A stretch of DNA of 64,000 bases from Botryllus schlosseri (GCA_051294905.1 CM119372.1:9550001-9614000); one strand, 5' to 3'. Positions 11,432 through 36,316 are shown, counted from the stretch's first letter. The notes: generated from the letters alone by a model not told the origin. A program made the numbers and translations.

Positions 11432-11762
11432 AAGCTGTGATTTCGAAAAGTGTAGACCTTATTTTGCTCCTTTATCCGCTGCACATCGTATAATTTTGAA
11501 TTATCGAACGTCGCTTCGTATTTTTCGTATAGTCCTACTGTTGATATTGAACGTCGATAATCCCAGTACATTATAACCATATGTTTCTTCGCCTGTTACT
11601 TTTCGTATTTTTTAGTTTTCGGTGTTATTATTCAGTTTTGTACTCTTTTTCCACTTTTTGAATAACAAATGTTCAATTTCATGCATTGAGAATATATGAC
11701 TGCCTGCTTTTGTCAATAGTAAGAGACGTTTTCGCGAGTATGATGGAAGACTCAGTCTAGGT

Positions 11763-13071: not shown

Positions 13072-13417
13072 GTCTAGGTTATCGCGTAGGCTAACTTATC
13101 CAAACAACTTAACATGTCTAGACTCGAGAGTCGAGACGAACTATATGCATAAACCGTTTTAAAAGGTATAGGCCGATTTGAAGGCCAGTGTGTCTCGTGA
13201 CTGTACTAGGATTGACCACTCTAAAACTTTAAAGTGGTTTTCCTGGTCATGTGATCGATTGATTGACTCACACATCCTGTGGATGAGGGTCGTTTCTTTG
13301 TTTCTTTGTTTCATTGATTCTTTTATCTATTTTCAAAACACTTCAAGATTGTAATACATTGGAAAGAAAGTAAGTTGTCGGACGACTTGACGAAGTCTTA
13401 TATCTATCAAATGCTAA

Positions 13418-13624
13418 CGCTGACCGACAAATAATAAAAACACATGATATTGCGCACTGGTGCAATCAATGTATCAAAACGCCTTCCATTAATATTGAAG
13501 GCAGTTGGTAATGATTCAGCAGAACCAAGCCCTGGTCAGATGGTTCAGGTAGGGCACCCGGCTGACGCTGGCCGACAAATAATAAAAATACATGATATTG
13601 CGCACTGGTGCAATCGATGTATCG
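13418..13624 (+). repeat. Direct duplication of a ~55-bp unit
   Basis: CCGACAAATAATAAAA(C/T)ACATGATATTGCGCACTGGTGCAATC occurs at about 13424 and 13571. Confidence 0.7.
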
Positions 13625-13676
13625 TCAGCAACTAGTAGAGAATTGGAAAGAACATTGCATATCAACAATCGTATCG

Positions 13677-14154
13677 TATAAAACGCTGCACAACAAATTT
13701 GGTCCAATTCTAACAAGCATAAGCCGCTGCAGAGCCAATTGAAATGTTTCCGTTCATTATGAAAAATTTAAAAAAAAATCAAATTATTCTTTTAACCCCA
13801 TAAAATTGTTGAGTAATCTTCTAAAACGACGCAACACAACTTTGTCTCAATTCCAACTTGTAGAAGTGAAGTTATTGCAGTTGAAATTTCTGAATTTGCA
13901 AAAAATATCATTGACGGTGGGTGTATAATCGAAGAATTATTAATGAAAAAGTCATATAACTCTCCGCTTCTACGGGTTGGAATCGAGTCAAATTTGCTTT
14001 GCATCGATTTTGAAGACAACTCAACAATTTCACGGGGTTAACAGAAAAAGTGGATTTTTTTTCAAATGTTCATTATATATTTAAATTTTTAATTGGCTCT
14101 GCGGCGGCTTATACTCGTTAGAATTGGACCAAATTTGTTGTGCAGCGTTTTATA
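13677..14154. mobile_element. Palindromic MITE with ~130-bp inverted arms
   Basis: TATAAAACGCTGCACAACAAATTTGGTCCAATTCTAAC... mirrored by ...GTTAGAATTGGACCAAATTTGTTGTGCAGCGTTTTATA; TA at both ends. Confidence 0.8.
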
Positions 14155-14494
14155 GGGCAACCTGGCCAAATAATCAATTCAGATTCAAACATATTTTAAT
14201 TAGATTATCATGAATGTTAGTAATTTTAAAATTCGAGAAAGTACAATTGGAGTCGGCGCAGAATTAAATCACTCGCCACCGCCACAGTTTCTCCCCGATA
14301 GCCTTCGGCGTTCAAAAGAGGAAAAACCGGTGTGCTTTCAGCTTACGTCTAGTTGTCTACTATGTATTTCAAAGCTATAGTATGTGGCACTACACGTTTA
14401 TAGTACGACAAGAATAAAAGCACTACACGAAACACCGATATAATTTATTCTCTCTTTATTAATTTAATACTAACATTCAGCATCGTGCGCGCGG

Positions 14495-14576
14495 GGTAGC
14501 GTGGCCGAGCGGTCTAAGGCGCTGGTTTAAGGCACCAGTCATTTCGATGGCGTGGGTTCGAATCCCACCGCTGCCA
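14495..14576 (+). tRNA. tRNA-Leu(AAG)
   Basis: GGTAGCGTGGCCGAGCGGTCTAAGGCGCTGGT-TTAAGGC-ACCAG...GGTTCGAATCCCACCGCTGCCA. Paired anticodon stem, long variable arm, A and B boxes, and a TTTTT Pol III terminator at 14581-14585. Confidence 0.97.
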
Positions 14577-15178
14577 GTTCTTTTTCATGTTACATATTTT
14601 CCTGATTATATCTGGGGAAACAGTAAATACAGATACATCAAAAGTCCTAGCATAGCGACCGGCATATTTCGATTTCGTTGCCGATATATTTTTTATCTAC
14701 TGGCCTGTGGACTTTCGTTACACAATCATTTTCGCGCCACGTCCGTCTCTATGTTCTGAGTTGCACAAGACAATTATATCTGCGTGTAGCGATAACTGTA
14801 CGGATTAGTAGTTCACTGGACGCCTTAGGCAGCTAATCGATTTGTGCAGGATGCTACAATTTTCATTCCTTTGCCACGAAGCCGCCGGCCGTAAGGCGCT
14901 ATTGACCCGTAACAGTTTCGTGGCACAGTCAGGAAGTCAAGAACCGGAACTAATGTGCACAACATTGGAAATTAATGACCGTGATCTGAACATGAGAATA
15001 CTCTGCGAGTCGCTCTGAAGCCTTGTTGCGATTAAAGCTGCCGTCGGATTTTATCATTACATATGAGGATTAGATATCGATTTAGGCAAAGTCTTTTGTT
15101 GTTTCTTGATTCAGTTTACATAGGCCTGGAAGGGGTAATCGTCTGCTGATTGGCGGAATTACTGCAATTTTTCAAGAA

Positions 15179-18100
15179 ATGATTCTCCTCAGAATCACCT
15201 GCCAACTGGCTTTAAGCCTATTGGTAAGTTCGTTATGACATAATCATAAAATTTAACTTTGATAAGCCATAATATCTTTTCATCTCTGCAGATTTTGGTG
15301 TGCTCCTGTGAATCTGCGAAGAAGGTCGATTACTCTAAGCATGTGCAAAAAGTAGATAATATTAAGGACTTCAAGAAGTTACTCAGAACAAGAATAAATG
15401 TGCTGGTACTGTTCGGATCATCTGGTAAGACTTAGGTTTATAGTTATCTCTTGATTTGTTCTGGTAATTGGATCGCTGTGATATTGTGCGATGCGCCGAT
15501 AGTTATCATCATTAGCCGTACTTTGATGACTGTTAGACATTTAATGACTGATCCCAAGCACGGGTAGTTGATCATCCACTCCACACCCACACAAATTGCA
15601 ACAAGGATCACTGACCACTGATCTGCTGGGGCAAGCCGAAGTGCTAAGAGATAGTCTTAGTTTCATTACTGTTCAGATTCGGCTATCAATTCCAAAATGA
15701 AAATTTTTGGAGACGCAGCCATTGAGACGAAAGGCATCGCAACATTGCTGCGGGTGGACTGCAGCACCAAAGAGGGAAAGAAAGTAATTTATTATTTTCA
15801 TCATTTCTACTTCGAAATCGCGACTCAAACCATTTTCTGGTAAACATTTATAGGAAAAAAGTAGGCAATAAAGTCTAAATATGATCATTGCCCTTCCCGA
15901 GTTTAATATAATGATGAAGTAAACAATACAACATATGATGAAATGTATAATAAAACAAATTATATATTAATATATACTAGGCTGGGACATTAAACCAAGG
16001 TAAAATTGAAACACAATGTGCGAACGCCACACAGTATTGTATAACATAATAACAGCAGATTATGCTGAAATAGGTTCCGACTGAGCTCTGATAATTTTAG
16101 TAAATTCTGTGTCATGTTGTTCCAATGCGAAATTTGTATCCACCAGTATGATTTGCACCGTCACAAAATTCAATCTGCGTTGAACGGAACAATTCTTATC
16201 AACTTGCTTTTATGGCTTCTCTATCCAAGTGCCCCACTTATGCTAACTAATGACTCTTCAATTTTTCAGAAGTATGACATTCGATACAAGTCAAGCACTT
16301 CTCTGTCTCGTCAACGTGCTTGTTATAATTTCTGCAATGTGTTACCGACACCTATTAATTAGCTTGTGGGCACTACAGTATAAAATGGTGAAATATGTGA
16401 ATATTGAATACGGTATATAATAATATTTAATTATATACAATATTGAAAAATGTTGGTATAGCAACATTTGGGATTGCCACATGTTCCTTATTTTGCAGCT
16501 ATGTAAGAAGCAAAAAGTCAATCCCGATCCTACTGTGATCCAGCACTACAAAGATGGCGAATATAGTGCAAATTATGAAAGAAAATTCACTGTCAAGGTA
16601 AATATCTGATTATCTATTGCCATGTTTTTCTATTGTGGGAAGTCTGTGTAAGACTTGGTAGTTAGAGCCAAACAAAATTTGACTGTGGCGAGACATTGCC
16701 ACAATTAAATATATGCGTCAAAAGTCAAACAAATCAAGCCGCCTGAATTAGTCTACAGTCGATAGGTTCGCATCATGGTGACGATCTGCATAATTGATGT
16801 TCCCACTTGGCGTAAGTCTGTAATTTATTGTAATTTCCTGAAAGTAAATGTATCATTAGAGCATAAATTCATGTAGTTTTGCTGTAAACGAGCCTACACA
16901 AATGCGAAATAACTTTTACTTATAAATTAGATCATGTATACATAAACTGACGATGGTTATTCTATTTACTGATGCTACTTGATGAAATCTAGATGCACTT
17001 ATACTATAATTCTGTTGAAGGGATAAGCATGAACTTGTCTTATTATAAATAATGAAGGGTTAATAGAAATATCGATATGTGAGAGGGTTTGGTAAATTAT
17101 TTTGACTAAAGGTAGTAAACGAATTGTTTTAAAGTGCACTAAATAGCTTACAAGTGTGAGTATTTCTATAATAATTCAAAATTACTCGACCAATCTGTGT
17201 TACCAACGCAGAATGTCTAACGACGCTACATTGTGCAAATTTACAACTATACTCTCACAATATTGAATAAGCAATATTTTATTTTTCAACCATCCCGAAA
17301 AACTATTTTGCACTGAACAAGATCTAAACAGTCATGAGTGATTGTCGTCTGCAAATCTGTAGTCAGTGAGTTGAAAACACATGCTTGATAGCCGACTCCA
17401 ATACCGACCACATCTACCTGTTTGAAGGTTTGGATTTCAACGAATTGAAACTCGTATGTTCTTGCCAGCGGAGATACGTCCATGTCTGTCTCTCTTACCA
17501 TAGTATGTAATTATTTTAGTCTGTGGCTGCATTCCTGAGAAGCCCCGATGCCGATGGACCCTGGGAAGAAGAGGACGACGCGCAAGACGTTTTGCATCTG
17601 CACAACGAAAACGAGTTCAACAAACTGCTGAAAAAGAAGAAGCGCATGCTCGTCATGTTTTATGCTCCATGTGAGTAAAATTTTTGATTCTGATAAATTT
17701 TCATGTTTGCCCGTTGTCAGATAAGAATTATGATTTCTGGTCTAGGCGTCAACGATTGGATTGAATAGTCCGCCCATTTGGATGAAAAACGCTTAGGCTA
17801 TACATCAAAACGTAATTTCCGATGATATTGTGTGCGGTGTTACAGTATTGCTTGCATGTGTGTAGTAGCCTAGTACTGATCAGAGGTCTCAAGTAAGTCA
17901 CGCCTACTTCTACTTGACAGATTTTAGGGCATAAATGCATAGGCCTACAGTAGGGTGGAGTGAAAATGACTTTTTTTTTCAAATCAAAAAAGGCCTTCCT
18001 CAATCCTGACAAATGACCTAAAACTTCAATTAAAAGTGACTTCAGGGTGTTGCCCCCATTTTCCAGCCGGCAACCCCCCAATTTCTACGCGTGGGGGGGT

Positions 18101-21100
18101 AAAATGGCCCATCTCGGCAACCGCTGGTCGTAGAGTCATGATATATAGCTCAAAATCTGCGGAAGCATCATGTTTCTATCTGTCTTCTGAAGAAAGTTTT
18201 CTCTATTGTGAACACAAAATGAGTTATAGCCAAAAAACTATGTATACGCACATTTTTGTTGAAATTCAGCATTTATTCTGACGAATTGTGATCTGTCATT
18301 AGTTTTTTTTAAAGTAAAGTAACACACTGGCAATACCGAATATTGGGCCCATATTACAAATATATTCACAACACAGTCCATTTAAAATCGGTTCAAAACA
18401 TCATAATGAAACATTCACATTGAACGTCTTATATTAAAAATGCATTCTTTTGTCAAGTTTTTTCATCAGTTTACGAGACTTAATTTTTCGGCGAATGAGG
18501 CCATCTCGTCTTTGAAATCCCGAAACGTGCCCTGATGCTTCTGTTACGAGCTTTACATGATGTTCCATGCACTGTTTGATTGCGGCATGGATGAAACAAA
18601 ATCAGAGGCTTCTCGCGGCATTCTTCTAACTCTGCATCAGTTAAGTGCTCAATCGCTGGAGAAAGTTGTTGATATAAGGTTCAATATCAACCAACTCGTG
18701 GTATACCTTTGCTTCCAAGTTCAACTTTGAGACGCAGAATAAACGAACAGGACCGCAGTTCAATTGGTTGGAACCGCTATGACTCTCAATGTCCAGGAGT
18801 GAATTTTATTCAGCGGCATGTTTTCGAATCGCCAGCACCTTGGTCACACCCAATTGAAAAAAACTACGTGGAAGTGTATCTTGTTGGCCAGTTACTCAAT
18901 TCAAAAAGCTCTCGCCACCACTTATGGCCTTTCAAAAGCTCCCATAGGAAATTGTTAGTGACTTAAGTAAGGACCGGTTATATGCTTATAAATGTGCTGG
19001 GCAATTATTCAAGGAAATGCTGATGATGATCTGGCTTACTTGGAGGTTGGACCACCGGTTGCGCATTCAAGATGGCTAACTTTAGGATGCAGTGCAGAGT
19101 TTTACGGTATTATGTAACAGTTAATGAAACGCCTTTAAACCTGGAGATTCTGGTTCGTTTTTGCCTTGAAGTATATTTTCCAACTTGGTTTGAGATCAAG
19201 GGAAACAAACATATAACACATGGACTCAGAAACATCTTCAACTTGATTAAACAGGTTTTGAATTTCTCTGACCGAAACGTTCGAAAAATTGCTCCGAATG
19301 TGGTGATAAGAAACGGTTATTCCGCACACCCCGAAAATATTATGATTGCAATGCTGGTAGATGATAATGAAGACATACGAAATAAGGGTGTGACCAAGGT
19401 GCTTGCGTTTCGAAAACATGCCGCTGAATAAAATTCACTTGTGGACATTGAAAGTCATAGCAGTTCCAACCAATTGAACTGGGGTCCTATTCGTTTATTC
19501 TGTGTCCCAAAGCCAAGGCATACCACGAATTGGTTGATATTGAACCTTATCAACAACTTCCTCCAACGATTGAGCACTTAACTGATGCAGAGTTAGAAGA
19601 ATGCCGCGAGAAGCCTCTGATTTTGTTTCATCCATGCCACAATCAAACAGTGGAACGACATGTAAAGCTCGTAACAGAAGCATCAGCACTAGTTTCGGGA
19701 TTTCAAAGACGAGATGGCCTCATTCGCCGAAAAATTAAGTATCGTAAACTGATGAAAAAACTTGACAAAAGAATGCATTTTTAATAAAAGTCGTTAAATG
19801 TGAGTGTTTCATTATGATGTTTTGAACCGATTTTAAAAGGACTGTGTTGTGAATATATTTGTAATATGGGCCCAATATTCGGTATTGCCAGTGTGTTACT
19901 TTACTTTAAAGAAAACTAATGACAGATCACAATTCGTCAGAATAAATGCTGAATTTCAACAAAAATGTGCGTATATATAGTTTTTTGGCTATAACTCATT
20001 TTGTGTTCACAATAGAGAAAACTTTCTTCAGAAGACAGATAGAAACATGATGCTTCCGCAGATTTTGAGCTATATATCATGACTCTACGACCAGCGGTTG
20101 CCGAGATGGGCCATTTTACCCCCCCACGCGCAGAAATTGGGGGCAACACCCTGAAGTCACTTTCAATTGAAGTTTTAGGTCATTTGTCAGGATTGAGGAA
20201 GGCCTTTTTTGATTTGAAAAAAAAAGTCATTTTCACTCCACCCTAGCCTACAGCCCGCCCACTTGTTCTATTTTTTTTTCTACAGTATAAAGTATTTTTG
20301 TGCTATGCTTCCATCACCTTTATGAGTGAAATTTTAATGTCAATTGTATTTGTGTAATAATTATATCATATCTTCTTGGCCCATTCTTGTTTGGAAGTGA
20401 AGTCTGTAAATGCAGCGATTCCGTTCCAGACACGTGCCGCTTTTCCTTCACATTTCATCCAATTTAGAAACGTTTGTTCTCGTATTATTTGCAATAAAAA
20501 GCACGCAATGATAATTTCGATAATTTTATTGAAAACTTTACTCTCACAGGGTGCGGATTTTGTAAGCGATTCAAACCTCATTTCGGACAAGCGGCTACCG
20601 AGTTGAAAGGAAAAGTGGTGGGTATCGTTCTGCTAAGGTTGAAAGGGGCATTGCGCTCTAAATATGACGTGGTCTCAAATTAAATATACGAGTGTGAAAA
20701 AGTTTTTGCCAGCAACGATTTACCCGCTTCCATGTTCGTTAAAATCGTTAAACCTATCAACCCTGTTTGCAGATTTTTGTTGGCGTCGACGCCGATTCTT
20801 CCGACGCGTATTCGCTGCGAGAGACCTATAACGTAACCGGTTTTCCCAAGACAATCTACTTCGAGTGAGTGTCGATCGTTTTTGCGAAAATCTCGCTCAT
20901 CCGTGTTTTAACGGTATCTGTTTTATGTTTCAGAAATGGGAAAGAGAAATTCGAATACAGCGGCGGGCACAATAAGAAAGACGACATAGTCGAATGGCTC
21001 GCCGAGTGAGTTTTTCACTTTTTGATTATTACCGCCTGCCGCGGACAGCATTATTTTCTTATCCAGCCCGCAGCCAGCCAAAGAGAAAGAACCGGAAAAG

Positions 21101-24100
21101 GGCTGGGACGAAGAAGACAGCAAAGTGGACCACCTCACCGAAGACAACTTTGACGAGTTCATCGCAGAAAACAGAAAAGTCTTGGTGTTCTTTTACGCCC
21201 CCTGTGAGTTTCACAGCTTGATTTCCGTGACTGCCGAATGCCCGTAAATCAGGGCTACTCTGGCAGACCGCTGACCAAATGCGTACCTTTTGAGTGCTGA
21301 ATCCGGACCTTATTTGTCTCAGTATTAAATTAGTTTTTAACAAAACAAAACCTTCAATGCTGATTTGCAGAAACAAAGTGAAGTGTTTTCTTCTTTCTGT
21401 TCAGCTCCAGACTAACGATATGTATCCGCCTTGGTTAGAAGAGCCATAAAGTTTTTCTAAAGAATAGATTTCATATCTATGACCAGTGAGAACCTTCACC
21501 ACTGCCTTTGACTCGCTCCCACCACTAAGATGTAAAGCACTAGTAAGAAATAAAAACAATGCCAATTCTTCCACCAACTGTGACTAATAGCACAATGAAT
21601 GCACTCCACTAATTTATTATACCGGTACTAAAACGGCTTTACCAGATTTTGTATATAGTATACCGTATTATATTTGTTTGTCTGTAAATTATTTCATGGG
21701 AGTTATAATGGACCCAAGAAGATTTTAAGCTATTGTCACCGAACCTTTGTCTAGAATAGTTGAGTAGCTCTGCCGTTAATTGTCAAATTTATGTGCAAGG
21801 GTGCGGCCACTGCAAAAATCTAAAACCCAGCTGGGATGAAGCCGCCGGAATTCTAGACGAGTCACAAGCCATTGAGAAGTTAGCCGCTGTTGACGCGACT
21901 AAATATATGAGCATCGCAAACCGATACAAGGTGGTCTTCTTGTTCTGAGACACGCCTGTGCATCGAGATTTATGTGGTCTGTTCGTAGGTGAAAGGTTAT
22001 CCGACAGTGGTCTACTTTGAGGATGGTGAAGAGAAGTTTGATGCCTCGAGCGCGTTTACACGAACTACGGACGGTATCGTGAAATATATAAAAGAGTGAG
22101 TTAGTTTTGCCTACTTTTACTACTTGTGGTAATATGGTTTCAGACTACTTCCACTTTTACTTGACATATTTTGAATGAAAACTACTTTTATGGTTGAAAT
22201 TGTCATAGCAAGTGAGCAGAATAGCTTTGGCCTACATCACTGTACCTGAATATATTTTGAAAATCGTATCTATGTGCGGGTTCATTAGTCATGTTGCTTT
22301 TTTCATGAATATTCACCTCGTAAATTTCAAAAGCAGCCTGCTCTGGTTAAATACAAAAAGATTCCTCAACGAAATCTACATTTCGTATCCACTTTGAATA
22401 CATTCTGGACACGTCGTTTTCTGCCTGCACTTGAAGAAGTTTTGACACATCGTGGAAATAGCTGCTTTTACCTGTAAGCAGGAATTTGTTCAAATACTTC
22501 TAATTTTAAATTTAAATACCAAAGGTGACTACTTTCGTCACCTGTATTGACTGATAAATGCAACCCTTATAGCACATCACTCAGATTTTGGTGTCAAACT
22601 TGTTGATGACCCTGCTTGAGTATTCGTCCGGCTCTATTTGGGATCATGACTTTACTAGCGGCCTTCGATAAGCACCAAATCAATACCTGTTCTATTTCTG
22701 TAAAGCCCAACTGAACCGCCTCCTCCGGAGAAAGAATGGCACGAAGTAGAGAGCGACGTTCAACATTTGACTGACGCAGATTTCAAGGAAAAAACGAAGA
22801 AGAAAAAGCACGCACTTGTCATGTTCTACGCGCCTTGTGAGCTGATAATGGCAGGCCGGTTTTTGGATTTTTCGTAATACAATCTATTTGTACGTTTCCC
22901 AGGGTGCGGCCATTGTAAAAAGGCAAAGCCACATTACACTAACGCTGCAGCGACCTTTGCCGATGATAAAAAGGTGACTGATATCCGATATCTCGAAGTG
23001 AAATGTGTGAATATATAGTATAATATATACAATATGTGATATCTCTAGCCTGAACCACATATCAACTTATTATGACTATGCGAAATTTTGAGTCACTTTT
23101 TCAACAATTTATCGGAAACTATTGGAAATATGTCTTCTCAAAGATATCAGTTGTTCAAACACTACATAATCCCGCGGATTAAAGAAAAACGCAGCGGCAA
23201 AGTGCGCAATGTCATTTCGTCTGCTATCAGACCGTTCTACAGTGTGTCCAGTGATCACCTTAAAATTCAAATTCAAGCAGTTCATAGTGAATCAATACCA
23301 CTCCGTGTTAATTTTTGACTGATCAACTTGCCCGTACCATTTCTGTTCTACCTTTTCTATTTCCATTCTGCGTGCATGCCATTTTGAACGTGCTCTTATA
23401 TTTTTGTAGGCCAAGGACCAAGATAGCCAGGATTTTGAACGGTTGACTTAGCCTAGCCATTCTTTTCGTTTTGCTACAATTGTTGTGATAGCTTAATTGA
23501 ATTCAATTTCTAATAAAATGATGATGAGGGTTCCATTCTAACAGCCCTTGCCCGTTGTAGGTGATGTTTGCCGCTGTCGATTGCACACAGCAGAAGAAGT
23601 CGTGCGATCAATTTTCTATCAGCGGCTATCCAACCTTTTATTATATCTCCTACGGGAAGTCGCAAGTTAAATATGAAAGCGGAAGAGAGGTACGATTATT
23701 CTTCTTGTGACGTTATTGTGATGAAATGTGATCCTAGCTTGTCTTAGCTTTTTAGCAATTGTTTGTGGATGAACAAATGAATTCATAGACCTATTTAGTA
23801 GTTCTACTGAATTCTAGGAGTCAATGTCGGTGCATTGAGGCGAGTGTATATTGCATGGTGGATTCTTCTCAAAATATTGATTTCTGTTTATATTGCCATT
23901 GGAGGCATTTAATATTTGTCTAACGGGTGTTACAAACTGGAGATCTCGATGTATAACTGTGTCGTCGAGACTGCTATCCAAATACCATACATATAGGAAC
24001 TTCGATTCTAGTTCTATCTGGAGTTATAACTGACTTGAAGAACAGTTAATGTAATATTGTATCCCAATTACAATTTCTGTACATTTATCGATCACAAAAT

Positions 24101-24186
24101 TTTTGACTTTGTCCCTTATCATTTAGGAGGCGGACTTCACAGAGTACATGACGGAACGTGCCGGTGGCGCAAAAACTGAACTTTAA
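15179..24186 (+). CDS. PDIA5: Protein disulfide-isomerase A5 (PDIR), short isoform, 15 exons, ~510 aa
   Basis: Signal peptide MILLRITCQLALSLLILVCSCES. Non-catalytic N-terminal domain (KDFKKLLRTRINVLVLF..HYKDGEY). Three active domains WCGFCK (20550), WCGHCK (21800), WCGHCK (22903). Last exon 24127-24186 EADFTEYMTERAGGAKTEL*. Junctions checked are GT-AG and in phase. Confidence 0.93.
17951..20245. mobile_element. Defective hATm-type foldback element in PDIA5 intron 5
   Basis: Termini TAGGGTGGAGTGAAAATGAC / GTCATTTTCACTCCACCCTA; TSD GCCTACAG (17943-17950, 20246-20253); ~850-bp inverted arms. Confidence 0.9.
18960..19784 (+). pseudogene. Disrupted hATm-type transposase C-terminal fragment
   Basis: Motifs HSRWLT, YFPTWFEIK, NGYSAHPENIMIAML, PCHNQTVERHVKLVTEAS and RRDGLIR are spread across frameshifted ORFs. 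Confidence 0.8.
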
Positions 24187-25184
24187 CCTTAGCATATCGA
24201 GTGAAAAATCGCTGCTACCAAATCGTTCCGCTTGGCATTCCAGAGCCTTCAAGCTAGACGAAGTTTACACCTATTTTCGAAAACTCCGCAATATCGATTC
24301 CAAGAAACCTCGTTTGTTTTGTTGATTGGAATTTTTAAACTCCTAATCCGTTATATTTTTATTGCATGATGTCGGGTTACGAAAATTTCTGTCAGTTTCT
24401 AGTTTGCAACGGATTTTTGTGTATGGTGAAATGGATGCAGCAACATCTAATCTGATGTTCTCGTGCCGTACTTTTCTGTGAAAAGCTGAAGCGTAGTTAT
24501 TGTCTAGGTTAGTTTGTCTTATCTCGTACATGAAATTATTTTAGTTGTAGTTACATTTCATGGAAGCATACCCATATACTGTCTATTTTTCTGTTTCTTT
24601 AGTTGCCCAACAATGGTTGAGCAATTTAAGCGCAAAATGAAGCTTCTTGTTGTGACAGTTATGGTCTTGTGTAGTCCAGAACGGACGTTCTCCAATTTCC
24701 AGTCAAATCTGTCTTCATTACAAAATTTTGCAGTATCTATGGTTAACCTTGAATCAAATCGCACATCGAGTATGAAAATGATATATGTAAGATTTACGAT
24801 TGCCTACATGAGGATAAATTTTAAACCTAATGTTCATTCTCTGTGTCACCATGGTATTGACCTTGATGTACCAGTGCTCTGTGCACTATGACACAAACCC
24901 CTAGGCTACTAATCAATTCATGATTTGAACTGTTACTTGTGTAGGAGATATCCTTCCAAAAATTATAATTATTCTTTTGTTTAACTGTCCCGCATGCACC
25001 AATCCAATCCATTTTTCTCGGGAATTGATAGTACAGCAACACCATCAAATTATATTGAAGACTTTTTTGTGTTCTTTTTGGGTCTTCTGACGCAGATGAA
25101 ATAGAACTAATAAAAGATGATGTTTGCCATTGGTGATTGATGATTAGGTGAACTGAGTGTTATCGACGGCTTGTCTGTTGCTAG

Positions 25185-28100
25185 GAGCAAAGTTTCGTTG
25201 ACTTTCTGAAGAAAAGGGCTGTTTTAGATGATAGCAGCAGTTTTTGGGAGGGGTCTGAACACTCGGATCAACTCCACCATCTCACCGGTAATGCTTTCAT
25301 GATTTTGAAATTGGTTCATACGGTAAAAGTGTGTGTGTTGACAGAAAGAAACTGGGAGTCATTCATTGCTCATAATGCCAAAGTGTTTATTGCTTTATAC
25401 GACCCCGATTGTCCGAATTGCCAAGCCTTGAGGGAGCACATTAGTGTTCTGGCAAAGGAACTGAAAGATGAACAGGTAAGTGTCATATAACACGATGGAT
25501 GTCTTACAAATGCATTAAATCTATGATTTTTTGGGAGATGTGGGTTATGGGATTATAAAGTCAATTTCTTAAAGTCACTTGGTCGAATGTTGATTTTTTT
25601 ATTGTGTCGCACGCTCAAATGTTGGACAACCGATCCCGATGTGACGGCTATGTGTGGGTAGTTGGTTTGCCTGAAAATTTACATTTCAGATGAATGTTGA
25701 AGTCGGTGTGCTTCCTGTAGATATGAAGAGTGATGGAATTCCTCACTTATGGTCAGGTGATATAGGAGTACCGACTCTTTACTGGTATGTGCGCGGAGGC
25801 TTTCAAGCAGAATATACGGGGGTTCGAAGTACAGAGGCCATGATGCAATTCATTAAACAGTGGGTGAAAATGAGAGCCCGGCCGATATCATTTTCCTTCG
25901 AAATACCAGTAAGCCGACTCCGGCCTATCCAAGGATGACATCTCTACTACAATTTCTCAAAACGAGAGGGTCATTCAATACTCATCTGGAGAATAAATGT
26001 AAATACATGACGTAGGCTATATAAGTACTGCCAGTTCTAGTTGACATATGTCCAGAGGTGGTCAGTAACGAAGTACTTCTACTTTTTGAAGTACTTGAAG
26101 TAGATTTTTCCTACTCACACTACTTTTTAAGTAGTTATGATTTTAAACCTACCTACTTACTTACTTTTGAACCACCACTCCTACTTTCACTTGAGTAGAA
26201 ATTCTGGGGTGACTTCTACTTGAGAAGCGACGGTGACTACTTTGACCACCTCTGCATATGTCACATTTTGGTATTGGTACCGGCTCAAAATCGTGATATC
26301 GACTGGGATCTAGTAATGATGCTGGATAGTATAATCAAAACCGCGAATTTCTACGTTCTGCAGGGAGATGCAACAGTCAGATAAAATACCCTGGTCTCGT
26401 AAAGAGTCATCTGAAGACGTGTACCATCTGGATGACTCAAACTTTGAAGCATTCGTGCGCGACAATGAGGATATTTTGGTTTTCTTTTACTCGTCAAGTT
26501 TGTATAATATGTCTCAAACATTTATTTGTGTATTCAGAGAGTTCTGTTTGTTAGATTGCAAGACTTGCTCTGATATACAAGCAGCGTATGCTGAAGCGGC
26601 AACCATTGTTGAGGAGGAACATCCAGGATGGTCATTAGCGGCGGTTAACATAAGAAAAGGTTGGAATTGCTTTAAATATACCTGACCTCTATGACTGGAG
26701 CATATGTGTAATGTATCAATAATGCTCTATTATGGCAGTGCTATTCCTTGTCCGTGTATCATATGCAGATTTACCACCTCCTATTGCACATGGAACGGGT
26801 GTCTAAAAAATGTGAGCGTTGCGAGTAACTGATAATATGACTTGAGTACATACGCATATGCATCTTCGCACCGAAATCAAATGATAAAAACTGAAGATAT
26901 TTGATGACTTCAAATTGACTCAAAATCGTAAATTTGACGTGACTTGACTTGACTCGATTCTGTGAAAACTTGTGTGGCTTTGACTCCTGAAATGACTAGA
27001 ATTGACTCGAGTCAAAATTAGCAGTGGCACGATATGACTGGTGAGTCGAAGGTAGTGACTTGATCCCAACACTGCTGCGAGAAACAAAAACAAAATTTTC
27101 CAACATTACAGGCAATGCTGACTTCCACATATGGGCTGACGTATTAAAATATTAGCAGATCAGCAGTGATAAAGTACTTTAACCACTTTTACATTTAAAA
27201 TATTTGATTTCCAAATGAATTCTTTCAACACTTATGACTTTCCCAATCAGAAAGTTGTTAATGATTATAATCATCACGAATGCCATGTAGTTAGCCCCTA
27301 TAACATGATCAGATATAGTAGAAATGATACTTCCTTCAGCAAGTATTACCCACTATGCATTATCATGGTAGATTCATCTCACATATAAGTTTGTCACAGG
27401 TGAGAGCATTATATATATCCACTTAAGTGTAGCATTAGGGGCTAGCTAGCAGGGTTGTAATGACTCGACTCGAGTCACGATTTTCTGATGACTCGACTTG
27501 ACTCGAGTCATCTTCTCAAAATACGGAAATCACTCAACTCAAGTCGAGTCAATCCGTTTATTGACTCGACTTGGACTCGAATAACTGCGCATGACTCGAA
27601 CCAAGTCACATGACTCGAGACTCACACGGCCAAGACCGACATTTCATTGTAATTTCGAAGAGAAGTAAGGTAACCTCACTCGTGGGATTTCGTCTATTGG
27701 TACTGATACTTGAAAATGCGTCCAGAAACATGCTTAAAGTAAGGAAAAATAGCAAATCACAAATGCGAAATATTCGATATCACCAAACAGAGGTATAAGA
27801 GGTGGGTTTAACAAGACTTTTACTGGAAACTGAGGCGTCAACACAATGACTTGGACTCGGACTCGAGTCATAATACCATGACTCGGACTCGAATCTCTGC
27901 TCAAAGACTTGGACTCGGTGGTGAAGTGAAAATGACTCGACTTGACTCGAGTCAAAACTATAAAAGTGAGATTGACTTGTGACTCGGAGCCTTGTGACTT
28001 GGTTACAACCCTGCCAGCTAGCTACCCCAAGTCACACAATTACTCAAATGACTCAAGAAAATACATTTTCAGCTCCAAAACTGAAAATGAAATATGAGGT

Positions 28101-31100
28101 GAACGCCACTCCAATGTTCCTCTATTTCAAGAGCGGTAAGAAGAAATTCCAATATCATGGAGAGACAACTTCAGCTGATGCGTTCATACAGTTTATCGCA
28201 AAGTACTGTCATGATATATTTCCATGGTGTTTACATCTTGCTTGATTCATGTTGGCAATACATTACTAGGCCAAAATTCATACAGAAGAAACCCACATCA
28301 AAGGAAAATACTTGGTTTGGACCGTCATCCAATGTGAAGCACCTCGACAAAGAATCATTACCACAGTTTGTATCAGAAAACGAGCAAGCATTGGTAATGT
28401 TTTACGCTCCGTGTAAGTATTTGTTAGTATAAGTAAGCCTGTTGTTTGCTGACATCCTTAGGGGGACATCTATTTAGAAATTTTACTGTTTCTTGACATA
28501 AGTTACGAATAGACTTAATCTTGCACACATCAACCATACAAAATATGTTACTGTTGGACGAATGAATGAAGCATTTCTAATGGTAAACTGTGTGACTCAC
28601 ACAAGAAAAGGTATTCCAATTCCAGAATTTACGACTGTATATATTTTTATTGGAGAAGCTGCTGAATCACCTGAATGTCTTGGTGTTGTTAAGCTTACCA
28701 TCGCTGATTAACCCCAAAATCTACAATTCAGGATGATGGCAGAAATCAGGGTCTTGATGACCTGACATCGAATTTACTGATCGGTACAGCTGTATTGACA
28801 GTAGAAATTGATTTATCGAAGCATCAGAAATGCAACTGCAATTTAGAACAATTGCTACAGTGTATATGTATATAATACTGTACTGTTCATGTTAATAAAT
28901 GTTAACATACCTCCAGGGTGTGGGCACTGCAAAAATTTTAAGCCAGATTTTGTGAGAGCAGCCGGCATACTAAAAGAGAACTCGGTAAAAGCAAAGCTTG
29001 GAGCATACGATGGAAGTGCAAACCGCGACTACAACTCAAAATACGATGTCAAAGGATACCCTACTCTCGTCTATTTCGAGTAACTTTTTACCAAACCAAT
29101 TTCAAAGACAGTTTCACTGCATCGACTATATATCATTTCAGTGACGGAGTGTATCAGTCACATTATCAAGGCCGAAGAAATGCAGAATCTGTTGTAGAAT
29201 TCTTAACAAAGTAAGACCAAGCTACTGTGGCAAGATTATTTATGCGAATAGGAACTAATATTACTTTTTTGGCCACTAGTTAGAAAATACCAAGTGTTTT
29301 GACATGCTCCATTTGATTTAGATCGAAACTACATACTGAGAAAAGGACCGAGAAAACGGAAAAAGATGAAATAAGCTCGGAACGACCATCTGAGGTTGAG
29401 CTTCTAGATCCCAGCAACTTTCACCAATACCTCGAAGATAACAAAAATGCACTCGTTATGTTTTATGCTCCTTGTAAGTCAGGTCTTTGGGGCTTGTTTT
29501 GCGGCTATCACCGTGTTTCCTCCCATAGGGTGCGGTACGTGCAAGAAAGTGAAGCATGAATTCTATGATGCGGCAGTTGACATAGCGGAGGATCTGGATG
29601 ACTCTGGAATGGCGATATTCAATGCCGATAAGCACCGAGCTTTTGCTCAGGAATTTGGTTTGAAGGTATGAGTGAGATATTGTAATAGTAACTTGTGGTT
29701 TCAATTGTAACTTGTGACATGGTTCCAAACCCATATTTCTATATGATAGATTCATTCAAATATCACGCAATTTAATTACTGTCAACAGTGATTTGAATAG
29801 ATCAAGTCACCATTTTGACAATAATCGGAACATTTTTAAAGTTGATGAATACAACAATCGCATCTTGAAACAATCATGTTATTGTGTCTCGAAAACATAA
29901 TTCGGGAACACGATCTATTCTGATATTCTATACCAGTGGTTCCCAGGGGGCGATTTGGCGGTCTAGGGGGCGAAAATGACGAAGGGGGCGACAGGGGGGC
30001 GACGGGGGGCGAAAATGGCGAAGGGGGCGATGACGCGTCAAATCGGCTGACCTTTTTTTTTTTTTTTTGTAGTCAACCCACGGAAATTTCGTTACAAAAG
30101 TGTGTCAAATTAGACATCGATCCGAAAATTTGAACTTTTTTTTTTTTTAGTCAACCCGCCGGTGATTACAGTTTGTATGCCCAATTTTCGGTACACAAAA
30201 TTTGGGCGGCGATGATCGGTGTTGACCTTGAAAAGGGGGCGATGGGTCGAAAAAGGTTGGGAACCACTGTTCTATACTCAGTGGTAGCCCTCTTAGTTGG
30301 AATTCATCTTGAATATGACTATTCTTATCCAACAAACAATGAACTGTAACTGTGTTCAATCCCTACCAAAAGCTGAGCTTCATACATTTTTCAAAAGTTA
30401 TCTGATTCATTTGTTTTTATATACCGCAACCCATTTTTAATCCATAACAATGCATGCAAAATGGCATTATGTCCCCACAGTATACTGTTACTGCAGATGA
30501 TGATACTTTTATCTTTTTTACTTGTAATTCATGTGGCAACTCGATATAATTGACAGGGATACCCAACTCTTTGGTACTTCAGTGATGGCGAGAAGAAGTT
30601 CAAATACAACGGAAAGTTTCGTAAAGACGCATTTGTGGAATTTATGGAAAAGTATATTGACATCTGTGCATTGATATTTGAAACGAATACCGATTGATTT
30701 GAGCAGCCCGCGCGAATTAGAGGACGAAAAGGAGGCGGCAAAAGAAAAAGTTGGTTTGTGGGTGGGAGAAAAGGACAATATCGAGCATTTGAGCCGGGAA
30801 AATTTTGATAAGACACTGAGGAAATATGACACTGCAATCGTCTTTTTTTACATTCACGGTAACTGGAATCTGATATTCTGTATTCCACAAACCATCTTCA
30901 TTTCTCTTTTCTGCCAGCTTGTTATCACTGCCTGAACACGATAAAGCCAAAGTATGTGCAGGCAGCGGCCATACTAGCTGAAGATAATCCAAATATATTG
31001 CTTGCGGCAGTCAATGGGGACTGGGAAAAACCGATAACATCGAAATATAACGTCAATTCGTACCCGACCTTTCTCTACTTCAAGTACGTTAAGAGTTCGC

Positions 31101-34100
31101 TTTTATAAATATCAGTGTTGGGATCAAGTCACTACCTTCGAGTCACGAGTCATCGCGAGTCATTGCAGATTTTGACTCGAGTCAAGTCAAGTCACTCGAT
31201 TTTCAAAGGTGACTCGAGTCAAGTCAAGTCACTAGATTTTTCGAGGTGACTCGAGTCAAGTCACGAGTCAAGTCAAGTTGAACTTTCGAAGTACAATACG
31301 TGATTCAAGGTCATTGCATTTTGCTAATTATTTTAACTACAGATGGGGTCCCCATTTATTTTGAATCGAGGAACGAATAAAGAGTTGATTATACACACAA
31401 AAATGCGTTCTATCGCTCATGCAAACAAATGTCAAACTACGCAAGTATAGCGGTATAGCTTCAGTCTGTAACAGGGGTGGGAAAACTGCGACTCGCGAGC
31501 CGCATGCTGATCTTTGAGTCTTTGATTGAGGCTCTTCAATGAGTGTGCACTGTGCAGTGTGCAATGTGCATTCGGTGATAATGACCGTAAGCCACTGTGC
31601 CTTTTCCGTCAAGATTCGGCCAATAATAATCACAAAGCTAGAATTCAAACGTCATTACGAAACCAAACACCAAAACCTTAATTGCCAAGAGTTACCCAAA
31701 AAGACATATTTACGAAGTATTATGATTACCGAGCTCCGCACTGTTTGACGTCATATCAGCCTGATTTCAAACACCTTGCAGCCTAGGTGGAGACGCATCG
31801 TCTTATAGCCTACCACACAGTAATATACTTCTTTCGATACCCAACATTTCCTTGTGACGGAATTAGTATATATAAATTTTTGAGTTGTGACTCTTTTAAG
31901 GCAACGATTTTTGATATGCGGCTCGCTCGTGAAGCAGCTCTGCCCACCCCTGATCTATAATTATCAGCCACAATATAGGATAGCATATGAAGCATCAGAA
32001 ATTTCAATAAAATGATATGGAGCAATACCCTACCCACATATATATCCATTATATACAATAATAAACGTATGGGCGATATTCGTTCGATTTAAAGCACACA
32101 AGAGGGTTGGTTGAGGTGTGCAAGTTTACAAAAACGTAAGCTATAACCTCCGATCACTGCGTTAACGATCAATTCATTAGTTATGTAACAATGGAGGCTC
32201 GGTAAAACGCACAATCATTGAGTGATCGGTCAACAATCCGAACTTATACAAGATACGGCGATCTAGTCGACATCGATTACTTGAAATTGACTCGTAAATT
32301 TTGCTTCGAGTGACGAGTCAATCTGCATTTTTGAAGCGTCAAGTCAAGTCATTTTTGCAAAGTGACTCGAGTCAAGTCAAGTCATACGAAAAAGGTGACT
32401 CGAGTCATCCCAACACTGATAAATATCTTTCTTAGCAGCAGCGGTCAACCTGTTTCTGTCTGCGGACCAGTCAATTAGCAATATTTTCAATCATTGGCTG
32501 AGTCGATCAGAACTGTGAGCTTGTCTCATAGCAATGAGATTGTGTTCATTACAATGAGATTGTGTTCATTACAAGGTTAACAACAGGCGACAAGCGTGTT
32601 TACTTGCTTATGTCTAGTATACTCTGTTTTGTTTGCTGCAATTGTACAAAAACCAAACTATTTCTAAATACATCTTGGTTCTAAACCTAGAAACGGTAAA
32701 ATGATGTATAAATACGATGGATCCCGGGAGACGACGGCATTTGTGAATTTTCTGAAAAGGTATGGAATGACATCAGAAGTCATAGTAATGCAGTAACAGA
32801 GTGTGTTCGTTCATGTTTCCCAGTCCTTCAAAGGAACTTGCCAAGCGTCAGAAACCAACATCGTGGCAAGATTTTCCCAATTTGGAGTTTGGTCGCGTCG
32901 AGCACCTCAGCAACAAGACCTATGACTCGTTTTTGGCGAACTATGTAACTGCAATTAATACCCTTATATCTCAAATATAGTACTGTCAAAACATGTTGTC
33001 ATGCAGGACACATCGGTTATTTTATTGCACTCTCTTTGGCATCCAAAGTCTTGCGTTAAAGCGAGGGAGGATTTGAAAGAAGCGTCGGAGAGATTACCGA
33101 AGTATGTTGGTACAGGAGCAGTGGATTGTCACAGACTACCTGAGAATGGAGGTTTGTAGAATATAATGAGCTCCCAACTTTCCAATATGTGAATTCAAAA
33201 AAATTAATGGGACAAGCGTTATACGTAAACAGCCAATTTGATGCTTTTTATCAGTCTCATCTTCTTTGCTGGGGTTCAAACAAACCCTCGCTGTGTCAGT
33301 CTCAGTGGTTCACTGAAGGCCAAGGCACGCACTGATTTCCAGGGTCGTAATGGCTCGAGTCGGGATTTTCTGATGACTCGAGTCGTTTTCTTAAAATACG
33401 GAAATGACTCGACTTGAGTCAATCTGTGTATTGGCTCGACTTGGACTCGAGTCATTGCGCATGACTCGGACCAAGTCGTATGATTCGAGAATCAGACGGC
33501 CAAGACCGGCTTTTCATTATTTCAAATAACACTAAAGTAACCACACTTTTGGGATTTTGTGGAATAGTACTGGTACTTGAAAATTCGACCAGAAACTGTT
33601 TAAAGTGAGGTAAATTAGTATATTATAAATGTGAACTATTCAATATCACCAAACTGAGTTACAACGAGTGGATTTAAGCAAGACTATAACTGGAAACTTG
33701 AGTGAGCAGTCAACAGAATGACTTGGGACTCGAGTCATAATACTATGACTCGGACTTGACCCTCTGCTCGATGACTTGAACTCGGACTTGACTCCGTGGT
33801 GAATTGAAAATAACTACACTTGACTCGAGTCAAAACTAAATAAGTGAGATCGTCTTGTGACTTGGTTACAACCCTGCTGATTTCCAATGAAATAATCATC
33901 ACGATGTGAGTGAAAAATGTTATTAATGGCTTTGTTCATTTGACACCGTTATCATCGCAAATCTCCCGATTCAACTAACTGGCAAATCTATCAGTAATGT
34001 ACGATGCAGCTGCGATCATTTCTTAGATTTCATTTTGCGCAGATGAATACAAGGTACTTCGTAGCTGGGATAACTGTGACATGAGTGTAACTTCTCCCTC

Positions 34101-34257
34101 TTTCTCAGTGGTCTGCTACAATCTCTCGGTGAAGAATTTCCCAGCATACAAGTTCTTCAAGAAAGGAATTTATCAAAGAGATATCGAAGCGTCGAGTGCT
34201 GACGACATCATCGATTTCCTAATGAGAGAATCCTTCAAGACCCGAGACGAATTATAA
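25185..34257 (+). CDS. PDIA5: PDIA5 long-isoform extension: 18 further exons encoding six more thioredoxin-fold domains, ending in RDEL
   Basis: Exons start at about 25185, 25345, 25690, 26364, 26555, 28072, 28270, 28917, 29142, 29322, 29529, 30557, 30707, 30919, 32691, 32824, 33007 and 34109, and join in phase. Motifs DCPNC, NCKTC, WCGHC, WCGTC, ACYHC and WHPKSC; C-terminus ESFKTRDEL*. No signal-peptide exon of its own was found. Confidence 0.8.
26053..26254. mobile_element. MITE, family B
   Basis: TIRs CAGAGGTGGTCA / TGACCACCTCTG; TSD CATATGTC. Confidence 0.9.
27450..28013. mobile_element. hAT-type MITE with GACTCGAGTC subterminal repeats (family C)
   Basis: TIRs CAGGGTTGTAA / TTACAACCCTG; TSD CTAGCTAG / CCAGCTAG (7 of 8 match). 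Confidence 0.88.
29934..30269. mobile_element. hAT (Charlie-like) MITE
   Basis: TIRs CAGTGGTTCCCA / TGGGAACCACTG; TSD TTCTATAC. Confidence 0.88.
31113..32418. mobile_element. hAT-type element with GAGTCAAGTCAA repeats (family D), with a nested element
   Basis: TIRs CAGTGTTGGGAT / ATCCCAACACTG; TSD ATAAATAT. Other copies at about 26830-27074, 35122-35434 and from 63658 to the window end. Confidence 0.9.
31472..31952. mobile_element. Nested hAT (SPIN/Buster-like) deletion derivative
   Basis: TIRs CAGGGGTGGG / CCCACCCCTG; imperfect TSD GTCTGTAA / ATCTATAA; zinc-finger remnant KRHYETKH in ORF 31539-31748. Confidence 0.7.
33340..33876. mobile_element. hAT-type MITE, family C
   Basis: TIRs CAGGGTCGTAA / TTACAACCCTG; TSD CTGATTTC; colinear with 27450-28013. 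Confidence 0.9.
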
Positions 34258-34514: not shown

Positions 34515-36316
34515 TCAATCGTTCTTTTTGTCGCTAGACAGAGACTTCTTTCTTTGAGCGAACATGTGAAAGTAAAGCTGTGGAAACCCTGTAATGTAAT
34601 CATAGTATTTTTGCGGATGCAACAAGAAATGAAAACAAGGAATTTTTTACCTGCCAGATACAGAGGAAACAGGCCGATCAGAACGTAGTAGTAATTGAAC
34701 GCGAAATTCCAATGATTCGGTAATGACATGGTATACAGTCCACTGGCTGCCACGTGAGGCAACGCTTTATAAATTGTCATCAATTCACCCTACGTTACAT
34801 CATTGAATTTTAATTCGGTTTTTCCGTAAAAACGACATCTTCACTCACCGTAACTCCCAAAGGATACAGTACGATGAATAGAGTGTACCTGAAAAATTAG
34901 TGAGAAACATCTGCGACTACTCATAGTTATTATGATCCGCGGTTCCACTATTTTCCTCCGCGCAAGACACAATGCACAACGCTATACACAAGACATAATG
35001 CGATGTAATGAACAAATAGGGAGGATACCAAGATGACTTAGTTACGGTCTATCAATCTAATATCGATCATCCAGTTCTGATTAAAGATGACTTGGTATTT
35101 TTCGACCATACCTATTTGCGCCAGTGTTGGGATCAAGTCACTACCTTCCCGAGTCATTGCACATTCTGACTCTAGTCAAGTCGCTCAATTTTTGGAGATG
35201 ACTCAAGCCAAGTCACAAAGTCATGACGAATTTAAGTATGGGGGGATTCAAGTTCAAGTCATGGCATTTTGCAAGATGATTGAAGTACCGGTATGCTAGA
35301 GATTGAGTCGCTATAGATTTTGAATTGAGACCACACAGATTTCTTGATGACTTGAAATTGACTTGAAAATTTAGTTTCGAGTCACAAGTCTAATCACGTC
35401 AATTGAAAAAGTTGACTAGAGTTCAGCCGACACTGATTCGCGCTTGCGAGTTTTGTTGATCACGACTTTACACGAATGTGTATAGATTTTTACATCGTTC
35501 TGGATGCTGCGATTAATCAAGGTGATAACTTTCAAATCTCATGAATAATGTAACTCTTAGTGTGAAGGATTAACATTTGAGTGCTCAACACATTGTGCCG
35601 AGCCAAAATGCATATTGTATATGACAGCGATTAAAATCTCCACACAGGCATACACATGTAGACGAAAAAAAGCGCCAACCTCAGCCATAGAATGGAATAT
35701 GGCGATGAGCCTAAGAGGTGAAACGTGTAGAAGCAATATCGAATGATTTCTGTGATTGTCCATGCCGTCATCAGCATGACGACACCTTCGCAATCTTGCA
35801 CCTATCAACGGCGAACGTTCATTGATCTAATTTTATCAGCACCCATCATCACAATCAGTTACTTCATACCTGATAGACTGGCTCTATCACAAACCACAAA
35901 AGTCCCACTCGGGAAAACACTTGTACAGTAGTTAGCAGCACGTTACTTCTTACAATCCCAACAGCCGCATGAACTATCTGCAGAATTTAATTTTCATATT
36001 ATGGGGGCGACATGAATGTAGCGACATACACATACCTCCAGTAGAGCACAGGTCTGGAAAAATAGCGTCTGCTTTTGCATCTGAATGTATAGGCCTTTGT
36101 ACGTTTTGTGTTTCATGACGTGCATGACCATTCCTACGCCAATAGCAAGCCACCTAAATATAAAATGTGCATAGTTCGATTACAACAGAGGGACGCTTAT
36201 AATGGCACGATGCAATGCTAGGAATATAGATCTCACCCAGCTGTCATTGCAACATTATACATAACCAACCACGCATGAGACAAAGAACTGGGCTCCTTCT
36301 TAGCAGTGGTTGCCAT
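34515..36316 (-). CDS. HACD2: Very-long-chain (3R)-3-hydroxyacyl-CoA dehydratase (HACD1/2, PTPLA family), 7 exons
   Basis: Spliced product MATTAKKEPSSLSHAWLVMYNVAMTAGW..FFQTCALLEIVHAAVGIVRS..QVFSRV..AWTITEIIRY..WLRYTLFIVLYPLGVTGEL..FPQLYFHMFAQRKK..KKND*. Catalytic Tyr and Glu and the dilysine ER motif are present. HACD1 versus HACD2 cannot be resolved here. Confidence 0.93.

Follow-up and report, generated by a model that had tools for sequence, protein, structure and literature searches.

A PDIA5 locus of the sea squirt Botryllus schlosseri in which one splice donor may choose between four- and ten-thioredoxin-domain products

The locus described here lies in a 64,000-nucleotide stretch of Botryllus schlosseri DNA (GCA_051294905.1 CM119372.1:9550001-9614000), which we refer to as the window. 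It comprises a gene for PDIA5, a protein disulfide isomerase of the endoplasmic reticulum (ER), here called block A, and a downstream run of exons, block B, that encodes further thioredoxin domains. The window is animal DNA of ~40% G+C, in which many introns of 55-67 bases stand alongside others of 0.5-2.9 kb, and protein comparison places its encoded proteins closest to those of the sea squirt Styela clava. Exons 2-14 and B1-B18 were traced by scanning frame-preserving GT-AG pairs between open segments, and exon 1 was found by searching the region 11500-15291 for a short ATG exon with a phase-0 donor. The exon recovered, 15179-15223, encodes MILLRITCQLALSLL, and its donor, TTG/gtaagt (a slash marks a splice site throughout), has a score of 6.7, the top donor in that region; joined to 15292, it reads MILLRITCQLALSLL-ILVCSCES-AKK. 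Because PDIA5 exon 1 was found at this position, the exon at 23561-23689 is numbered exon 14. Block B starts at 25185 and consists of 18 exons, all bounded by GT-AG, that amount to 2334 bases, or 777 codons and a stop; it has no internal stop codon and ends with RDEL-TAA at 34257. An ATTAAA at 34332 and an AATAAA at 34489 lie downstream of exon B18. A first-pass annotation of the same DNA had placed the end of exon 14, its two acceptors, and the downstream exons, and every coordinate was borne out when the model was rebuilt from the sequence. The features of the locus are as follows.

15179-15223, + strand: PDIA5 exon 1, start codon and first 15 signal-peptide residues (ATG, phase-0 donor)
15292-15424, + strand: PDIA5 exon 2, signal-peptide end and b domain start (junction scan; matches Styela clava P0065 residues 9-61)
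15677-15783, + strand: PDIA5 exon 3 (GT-AG, frame kept)
16499-16597, + strand: PDIA5 exon 4 (junction scan)
17520-17670, + strand: PDIA5 exon 5, first catalytic domain as far as FYAP/ (phase-1 donor within the W codon)
20550-20617, + strand: PDIA5 exon 6, CGFC site (junction scan)
20773-20864, + strand: PDIA5 exon 7 (junction scan)
20934-21005, + strand: PDIA5 exon 8 (junction scan)
21067-21203, + strand: PDIA5 exon 9 (junction scan)
21800-21930, + strand: PDIA5 exon 10, CGHC site (junction scan)
21989-22095, + strand: PDIA5 exon 11 (junction scan)
22706-22836, + strand: PDIA5 exon 12 (junction scan)
22903-22973, + strand: PDIA5 exon 13, CGHC site (junction scan)
23561-23689, + strand: PDIA5 exon 14, shared donor exon, ..KYESGRE, phase 0 (homologous ..GGRE/ junction in Styela clava and amphioxus)
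24127-24186, + strand: proximal terminal exon, domain 4 closing helix, KTEL, and stop of the short, 510-aa form (junction scan; relatives' tails)
24613-24786, + strand: doubtful candidate for an own first exon of block B, signal-peptide-like, phase-0 donor (open frame, donor TAT/gtaaga)
25109-25114, + strand: first canonical AATAAA past the KTEL stop, 76 bases before the 25185 acceptor (sequence)
25185-25287, + strand: exon B1, alternative domain 4 closing helix and linker to domain 5 (aligned with the exon that continues the long proteins of Styela clava and amphioxus)
25345-25475, + strand: exon B2, domain 5, CPNC site (PF00085, E 2.8e-5; CPNC conserved in Styela and Clavelina)
25690-25859, + strand: exon B3 (83% identity to P0001, a genomic open reading frame of a close relative)
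26364-26497, + strand: exon B4 (junction scan)
26555-26659, + strand: exon B5, domain 6, CKTC site (junction scan)
28073-28202, + strand: exon B6 (junction scan)
28270-28412, + strand: exon B7 (junction scan)
28917-29079, + strand: exon B8, domain 7, CGHC site (PF00085, E 1.7e-8)
29142-29210, + strand: exon B9 (junction scan)
29322-29473, + strand: exon B10 (junction scan)
29529-29665, + strand: exon B11, domain 8, CGTC site (junction scan)
30557-30651, + strand: exon B12 (junction scan)
30707-30858, + strand: exon B13 (junction scan)
30918-31083, + strand: exon B14, domain 9, CYHC site (PF00085, E 1.2e-5)
32691-32759, + strand: exon B15 (junction scan)
32824-32944, + strand: exon B16 (junction scan)
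33007-33151, + strand: exon B17, domain 10, without CxxC (last domain also without CxxC in Styela, Clavelina, and amphioxus)
34109-34257, + strand: exon B18, end of domain 10, RDEL, and stop of the long, 1268-aa form (junction scan)

Exon 14 ends with ..KYESGRE followed by GTACGA, in phase 0. The exon behind the proximal acceptor, 24127 (cccttatcatttag/GAG), holds 19 codons, EADFTEYMTERAGGAKTEL, ending in KTEL, and is closed by a TAA at 24184-24186; the exon behind the distal acceptor, 25185 (gttgctag/GAG), opens in phase 0 with EQSFVDFLKKR... The first-pass annotation had proposed that the exon 14 donor could be joined to either site, and this was confirmed at the level of reading frames: one donor (23689) faces two acceptors (24127 and 25185), all in phase 0, with stops at 24186 and 34257. 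Each route has a polyadenylation (poly(A)) signal downstream, the AATAAA at 25109 for the short route and the ATTAAA at 34332 and AATAAA at 34489 for the long one. An in-frame TAG stands immediately 5' of the 25185 acceptor, and exon B1 therefore cannot begin farther upstream in that frame. The predicted products are 510 and 1268 aa long (~510 and ~1,250 aa in the first-pass annotation). A third, serial route from exon 14 through part of the KTEL exon to B1, as in an older Styela model described below, was rejected, as each of the two GT sites within 24127-24186 is in phase 1 and such a transcript is impossible in frame in the window.

Thioredoxin domains were counted with a hidden Markov model (HMM) built on 45 domain segments, which were taken from 7 PDIA5-like proteins belonging to other animals and none from the window. 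All domains scored as full length, four of four in the short form and ten of ten in the long form, in agreement with the earlier description of 18 in-phase exons that run from 25185 through six thioredoxin folds to RDEL. The counts rest on this custom HMM, because Pfam applied to single block B exons found PF00085 in three of six pieces, the other three being too short or too divergent to score. Domain 4 spans residues 394-501 in both forms and, with either terminal exon, extends to HMM position 110. As it reaches the end of the model with either one, both alternative exons supply the same structural element, the closing helix; the first-pass annotation had assigned this helix of the third catalytic domain to the 25185 exon, and correctly so.

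The catalytic sites of the short form are CGFC, CGHC, and CGHC, and those of the distal domains are, in order, CPNC, CKTC, CGHC, CGTC, and CYHC, followed by one domain without CxxC. In seven of the nine a-type domains, the codon immediately preceding CxxC is interrupted by a phase-1 intron (FYAP/W-CGHC); these introns lie in the exon model, on the + strand, at 17670/20550, 21203/21800, 22836/22903, 26497/26555, 28412/28917, 29473/29529, and 30858/30918. The exceptions are domain 5, with CPNC inside exon B2, and domain 10, with a phase-0 intron at 32944/33007. Introns of one phase therefore flank whole domain modules. Elsewhere, annotated isoforms X1 and X2 of the oyster Crassostrea gigas (P0102/P0175) and two isoforms of the soft coral Dendronephthya gigantea (P0069/P0106) differ by the exact loss of one thioredoxin module, with the skipped piece running from ..VLV/MFYAPWC in one domain to the equivalent position in the following one, between FYAP/W introns; domain number in the PDIA5-like family is therefore also varied by cassette skipping.

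The characters of the PDIA5 family are all present, namely, a predicted signal peptide, a b-like domain and three CxxC thioredoxin domains, and a retrieval tetrapeptide (KTEL or RDEL). The predicted N-terminal signal peptide, formed by exons 1 and 2 (MILLRITCQLALSLLILVCSCES-AKK), passes a hydrophobic-window test and aligns with the Styela N terminus. KTEL is a working ER-retrieval signal in human AGR2. Orthology is indicated by 62% identity over 502 columns to the Phallusia protein named "Protein disulfide-isomerase A5." The extended PDIA5-like organization, in which a PDIA5 half runs unbroken into more thioredoxin domains and a single tail, is present at the level of open reading frame (ORF) and collinearity.

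Similarity searches, for which the best 120 matches of each list were examined, place the long form in a wide family. When the open frame 25185-25487 was run with HMMER against all 1.84 billion representative proteins, 51 matches at E<=0.001 were obtained, the top one being a 1307-aa RefSeq protein of the amphioxus Branchiostoma lanceolatum (XP_066299648.1) that has a PDIA5-like start and continues past ..GGRE-EPDFVAFM.. through six more domains to REEL. The long protein of the window aligns with it in a single BLASTP segment (query 17-1242, subject 30-1291; 37% identity, 826 bits). The amphioxus proteins (other isoforms and species, 1001-1565 aa) are collinear with the window protein, with ten thioredoxin-like domains and a last domain without CxxC, but differ in having CGHC at all eight catalytic sites; no short KTEL-type form was found in amphioxus among the best 120 matches of the lists. 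The amphioxus extension, searched among proteins of similar length, gave 282 matches of 718-2288 aa at E<=1e-20. Among the best 120 of these 282 were PDIA5-like proteins of 750-1565 aa from amphioxus, corals, Hydra, molluscs, echinoderms, hemichordates, annelids, brachiopods, arthropods, and a sea squirt, and several of these long forms are found on intron-less contigs of 3-4 kb that are barely longer than the ORF and therefore represent mRNAs. A 1135-aa PDIA5-like ORF that has a signal peptide and ends in KEEL, on an intron-less 3564-base contig of the metagenome collection (L013), is by its contig structure direct mRNA-type evidence of a long form in another animal.

The listed matches include a sea squirt protein, the 1267-aa "uncharacterized protein" of Styela clava LOC120341795 (XP_077966473.1; P0065). 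It has the same ten-domain order, the same junction from ..YQGGRE to the B1 homologue, and an ER-retrieval tail, and its site types (CPNC, C-K-x-C, CGHC, CG-x-C, C-x-x-C, none) match those of block B; the window locus is the orthologue of this Styela gene. Block B aligns to its residues 512-1267 with 53% identity and 848 bits, a score that, like the 826 bits against amphioxus, is far above chance expectation; identity to the window is 77% over the first four domains (366/475 aligned) and 54% over the last six (407/750). Pfam detects nine PF00085 stretches each in the Styela and amphioxus long proteins, behind the N-terminal b domain. Since long PDIA5-like proteins are annotated across invertebrates, the giant form is not new, and the novelty implied for it by the first-pass annotation is not supported, given that amphioxus, corals, Hydra, molluscs, echinoderms, and a sea squirt all have annotated proteins in the range of 750-1565 aa. 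On these comparisons, the ten-domain form represents the ancestral architecture and has already been recorded.

The short form has equally close relatives. The third catalytic domain of the Styela protein, searched among shorter proteins, gave 1259 matches, and the sea squirt forms among the best 120 of these are 497-515 aa long and all end with the helix and KTEL (KSEL in P0288). Five short-form ORFs lie on contigs of 2.3-2.5 kb (P0172, P0288, P0249, P0255, and P0272), which leave 0.75-1.0 kb for untranslated sequence. The closest, P0172, is a 497-aa ORF of a close relative on a 2305-base contig that is 84% identical to the window short form over 497 aa, and its tail, EADFTDYMTDRAGTKKTEL, differs from the 24127 exon at three residues. 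The presence of these KTEL tails on transcript-sized contigs indicates that the proximal exon is a conserved, expressed coding exon. The named records of the same group (Phallusia mammillata A0A6F9DMS5, 508 aa; Clavelina XP_076820340.1, 515 aa) likewise have four domains, and together with the five ORFs, they are 62-84% identical to the window short form, with the helix and KTEL/KSEL in the last 19-20 residues; unlike the window, these records contain the short product only and are silent on a locus shared with a long form.

Judged by its domains, the short form is the vertebrate-like form. Human PDIA5 (PDIR) is a protein of 519 aa with three a domains, one b-like domain, and a KEEL tail (PMC3500226), and the window short form likewise has a signal peptide, b-like and three catalytic domains, and a retrieval tetrapeptide. 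This agrees with the four-domain vertebrate PDIA5 with an ER-retrieval tail to which the first-pass annotation had referred. The human protein is described there with these four domains only, whereas the window locus continues for six more (PMC3500226).

Taking both sets of comparisons together, we regard one locus with an alternative last-exon switch as the probable arrangement. Under this proposal, the exon 14 donor at 23689 would be joined to 24127 and the transcript polyadenylated before 25185, giving a 510-aa b-a-a-a enzyme ending in KTEL, and transcripts that pass the proximal poly(A) site would be spliced from the same donor to 25185, giving a 1268-aa enzyme ending in RDEL. The long enzyme would have the same signal peptide and first four domains, plus six further thioredoxin domains, and both products would be fully folded, because each alternative exon provides the last helix of domain 4. 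The choice would be a contest between the proximal acceptor with its poly(A) site and the distal acceptor, and the locus would keep the old invertebrate ten-thioredoxin-domain architecture while adding a short terminal exon proximally. Switching between alternative last exons is a well-established mechanism. That the 23689-25185 junction is used in Botryllus is suggested by collinearity with the proteins of relatives, and the AATAAA at 25109 is the putative poly(A) signal of the short form. The first-pass annotation had also proposed one locus making two ER oxidoreductases through an alternative last exon; the intron phases, the completion of domain 4, the collinearity with Styela, and the KTEL forms of relatives lend that proposal partial, indirect support, and the two Clavelina genes and a candidate leader exon weigh on the other side. 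It had further suggested that the long form may serve large disulfide-rich secreted clients.

The structure of block B itself bears on whether there is one gene or two. Block B cannot start alone at 25185, because a TAG lies just upstream and B1-B2 contain no in-frame ATG; the first is at mRNA position 235, in B3, after three out-of-frame ATGs. B1-B2 encode the conserved first half of domain 5, including CPNC. The retrieval tail of block B is kept in three sea squirts as RDEL, HDEL, and KDEL, and a signal peptide is therefore required.

Several observations weigh against a single gene. In Clavelina lepadiformis, the same two blocks lie on one contig, and both RefSeq and the submitters' annotation record them as two genes, of 515 aa with KTEL (XP_076820340.1) and of 782 aa (XP_076820673.1/674.1, 782/643 aa); the B block is 41% identical to that of the window over 771 columns, and the 782-aa model, which lacks a signal peptide, takes as its start a Met within the B1 homologue. 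For Styela clava, only the long product is annotated, and the RefSeq versions XP_039266290.1 (P0287, 1291 aa) and XP_077966473.1 (1267 aa) differ at the exon 14/B1 junction, so that the long model there may rest partly on prediction. The older version has a 13-residue piece of a KTEL-type exon (EAAFTEFIQEKTG) threaded ahead of the B1 helix and, past domain 5, a longer linker; neither is present in the newer one. No transcript-derived protein spanning exon 14/B1 was found for any sea squirt among the best 120 matches of each list, and there, the long form appears for sea squirts only as the Styela clava RefSeq model. Furthermore, block B evolves faster than block A (54% versus 77% identity to Styela clava), and a signal-peptide-like exon with a fitting phase-0 donor is present at 24613-24786.

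Further searches were made around the junction. Exon B3, searched among longer proteins, gave six candidates, one of them the genomic ORF of a close relative (P0001), and that collection therefore holds no transcript-derived protein of this species. A metagenome scan with block-B-specific patterns gave 162 pattern matches and no relative, and one with a sea-squirt-like short form (P0255) gave 579 relatives, the best of them 63% identical and none close enough to bear on the junction.

The exon at 24613-24786 would be the first exon of block B if the latter were an independent gene with its own promoter, spliced in phase 0 to 25185 to encode an 835-aa protein. The first-pass annotation had reported no signal-peptide exon for block B, which needs correction, as this candidate lies between 24200 and 25185. 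It opens MVEQFKRKMKLLVVTVMVLCS.. with a hydrophobic leader, has a good phase-0 donor (TAT/gtaaga), and when joined from 24786 to 25185 gives a frame open over 835 codons; the Clavelina annotations also split the two halves. However, by crude criteria, exons of this type occur at 15 sites in 128 kb (both strands), ~0.12 per kb, and the chance of finding one in the 998-base gap is P ~0.11 (~1 in 9). The candidate gave no Pfam match and has a low-complexity, Ser- and Asn-rich tail. It is probably inside the 3' untranslated region of the short form, because it lies upstream of the first AATAAA and the short-form contigs of relatives leave room for untranslated sequence of that length. In addition, the product would start with an orphan closing helix severed from its domain, the Clavelina B models are without any signal peptide, and the Styela model joins B1 to exon 14. 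We consider a separate gene unlikely on this evidence. A repeat or transposon origin of the gap 24300-25184 was ruled out, as the gap is single-copy in the 495.5-Mb genome of the species itself.

It is similarly doubtful that the two blocks form an operon-like pair, in which the short mRNA would be polyadenylated just before 25185 and a spliced leader trans-spliced at 25185, giving a B-only mRNA that could coexist with the long isoform. Both units have the same orientation, the AATAAA stands 76 bases before the acceptor, and the Clavelina B-only RefSeq models begin inside the B1 homologue without an upstream exon. Moreover, operons occur in sea squirts, and about half of the genes of these animals are trans-spliced (PMC1488885). 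The same source states, however, that acceptors with an upstream partner donor favor cis-splicing and that Ciona operons have no intercistronic DNA, whereas by our estimate, ~45-60 bases would remain here (PMC1488885). An mRNA initiated at B1 would also meet three out-of-frame ATGs before the first in-frame one in B3, and its product would lack a signal peptide despite the conserved RDEL/HDEL/KDEL tail. The Clavelina models might reflect a B-only RNA of this trans-spliced kind, which may arise as a by-product; by its reading frame, such an RNA in this species could not encode the conserved protein. That block B is a decaying relic of an ancestral long gene, skipped in all functional mRNAs, is very improbable: it has diverged from Styela clava faster than block A, and of its five CxxC motifs, a single one has remained the canonical CGHC that amphioxus has in the corresponding five domains, but its 18 exons all retain GT-AG boundaries and read through 777 codons in a single open frame, each of the six domains scores as a thioredoxin fold of full length, the odd motifs are common in type to three sea squirts (CPNC in all three), likewise the retrieval tail, and exon B3, at 83% identity to a close relative, is similar to block A at 84%.

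A second PDIA5 locus was also considered as the source of the long form and was ruled out, as the genome of the species has a single such locus: no second one was found in its 495.5 Mb, 22 of 33 matches to P0065 falling inside the window and the remaining 11 belonging to other PDI-family genes. The same genome has uninterrupted frames, 629 and 512 aa long and 30-43% identical to PDIA5 domains, at G000:C10:27870736-27872523 (L002, L004, and L010) and G000:C13:9351030-9351311; from their sequence, these are other PDI-family genes, intron-free over the stretches. Within the window, intron 5 of PDIA5 (2.9 kb) carries on the + strand open frames at 19030-19428 (133 aa) and 19461-19781 (107 aa) that resemble mobile-element remains. 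Short dispersed repeats are found in the block B introns and downstream of the block at 27464-27979, 31109-31246, 32298-32475, 33395-33526, and 35081-35296, and their translations recur in motifs such as DSSQVKS and SSHYL, which suggests that they are miniature transposon copies.

Another ER protein that is large and soluble, has many thioredoxin domains, and ends in a KDEL-type tail is ERdj5 (DNAJC10), which has an N-terminal J domain. The window protein differs from it at this end, being without a J domain and having a PDIA5-like N terminus. One amphioxus relative is named "dnaJ homolog subfamily C member 10-like" by NCBI.

A giant PDIA5 is thus an ordinary invertebrate architecture, which corrects a tempting reading of the long product as a novel isoform. 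A possible new element is the coupling of four- and ten-domain ER oxidoreductases to one donor in sea squirts. This coupling is in no annotation examined, and a literature search on PDIA5 in ascidians found no paper on it; the public annotations are inconsistent, with the long form only in Styela and two separate genes in Clavelina. We suggest, tentatively, that the sea squirt locus may preserve an intermediate step to the vertebrate four-domain PDIA5, in which a ten-domain ancestor gained the proximal exon and vertebrates kept only the short route. A chordate ancestor with about ten domains, as in amphioxus, would have gained a copy of the domain 4 closing helix with a retrieval signal, so that one gene made both short and long forms, and the six distal domains would later have disappeared in vertebrates. 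Relieved of the core function, their sea squirt counterparts would have drifted to the unusual active sites CPNC, CKTC, CGTC, and CYHC. The part of the locus worth specialist attention is the single donor that would choose between a 60-base closing exon and six further domains. If both junctions are used, it would offer a simple natural setting in which to test the contribution of extra thioredoxin domains to an ER oxidoreductase, as well as a plausible route to the PDIA5 of vertebrates.

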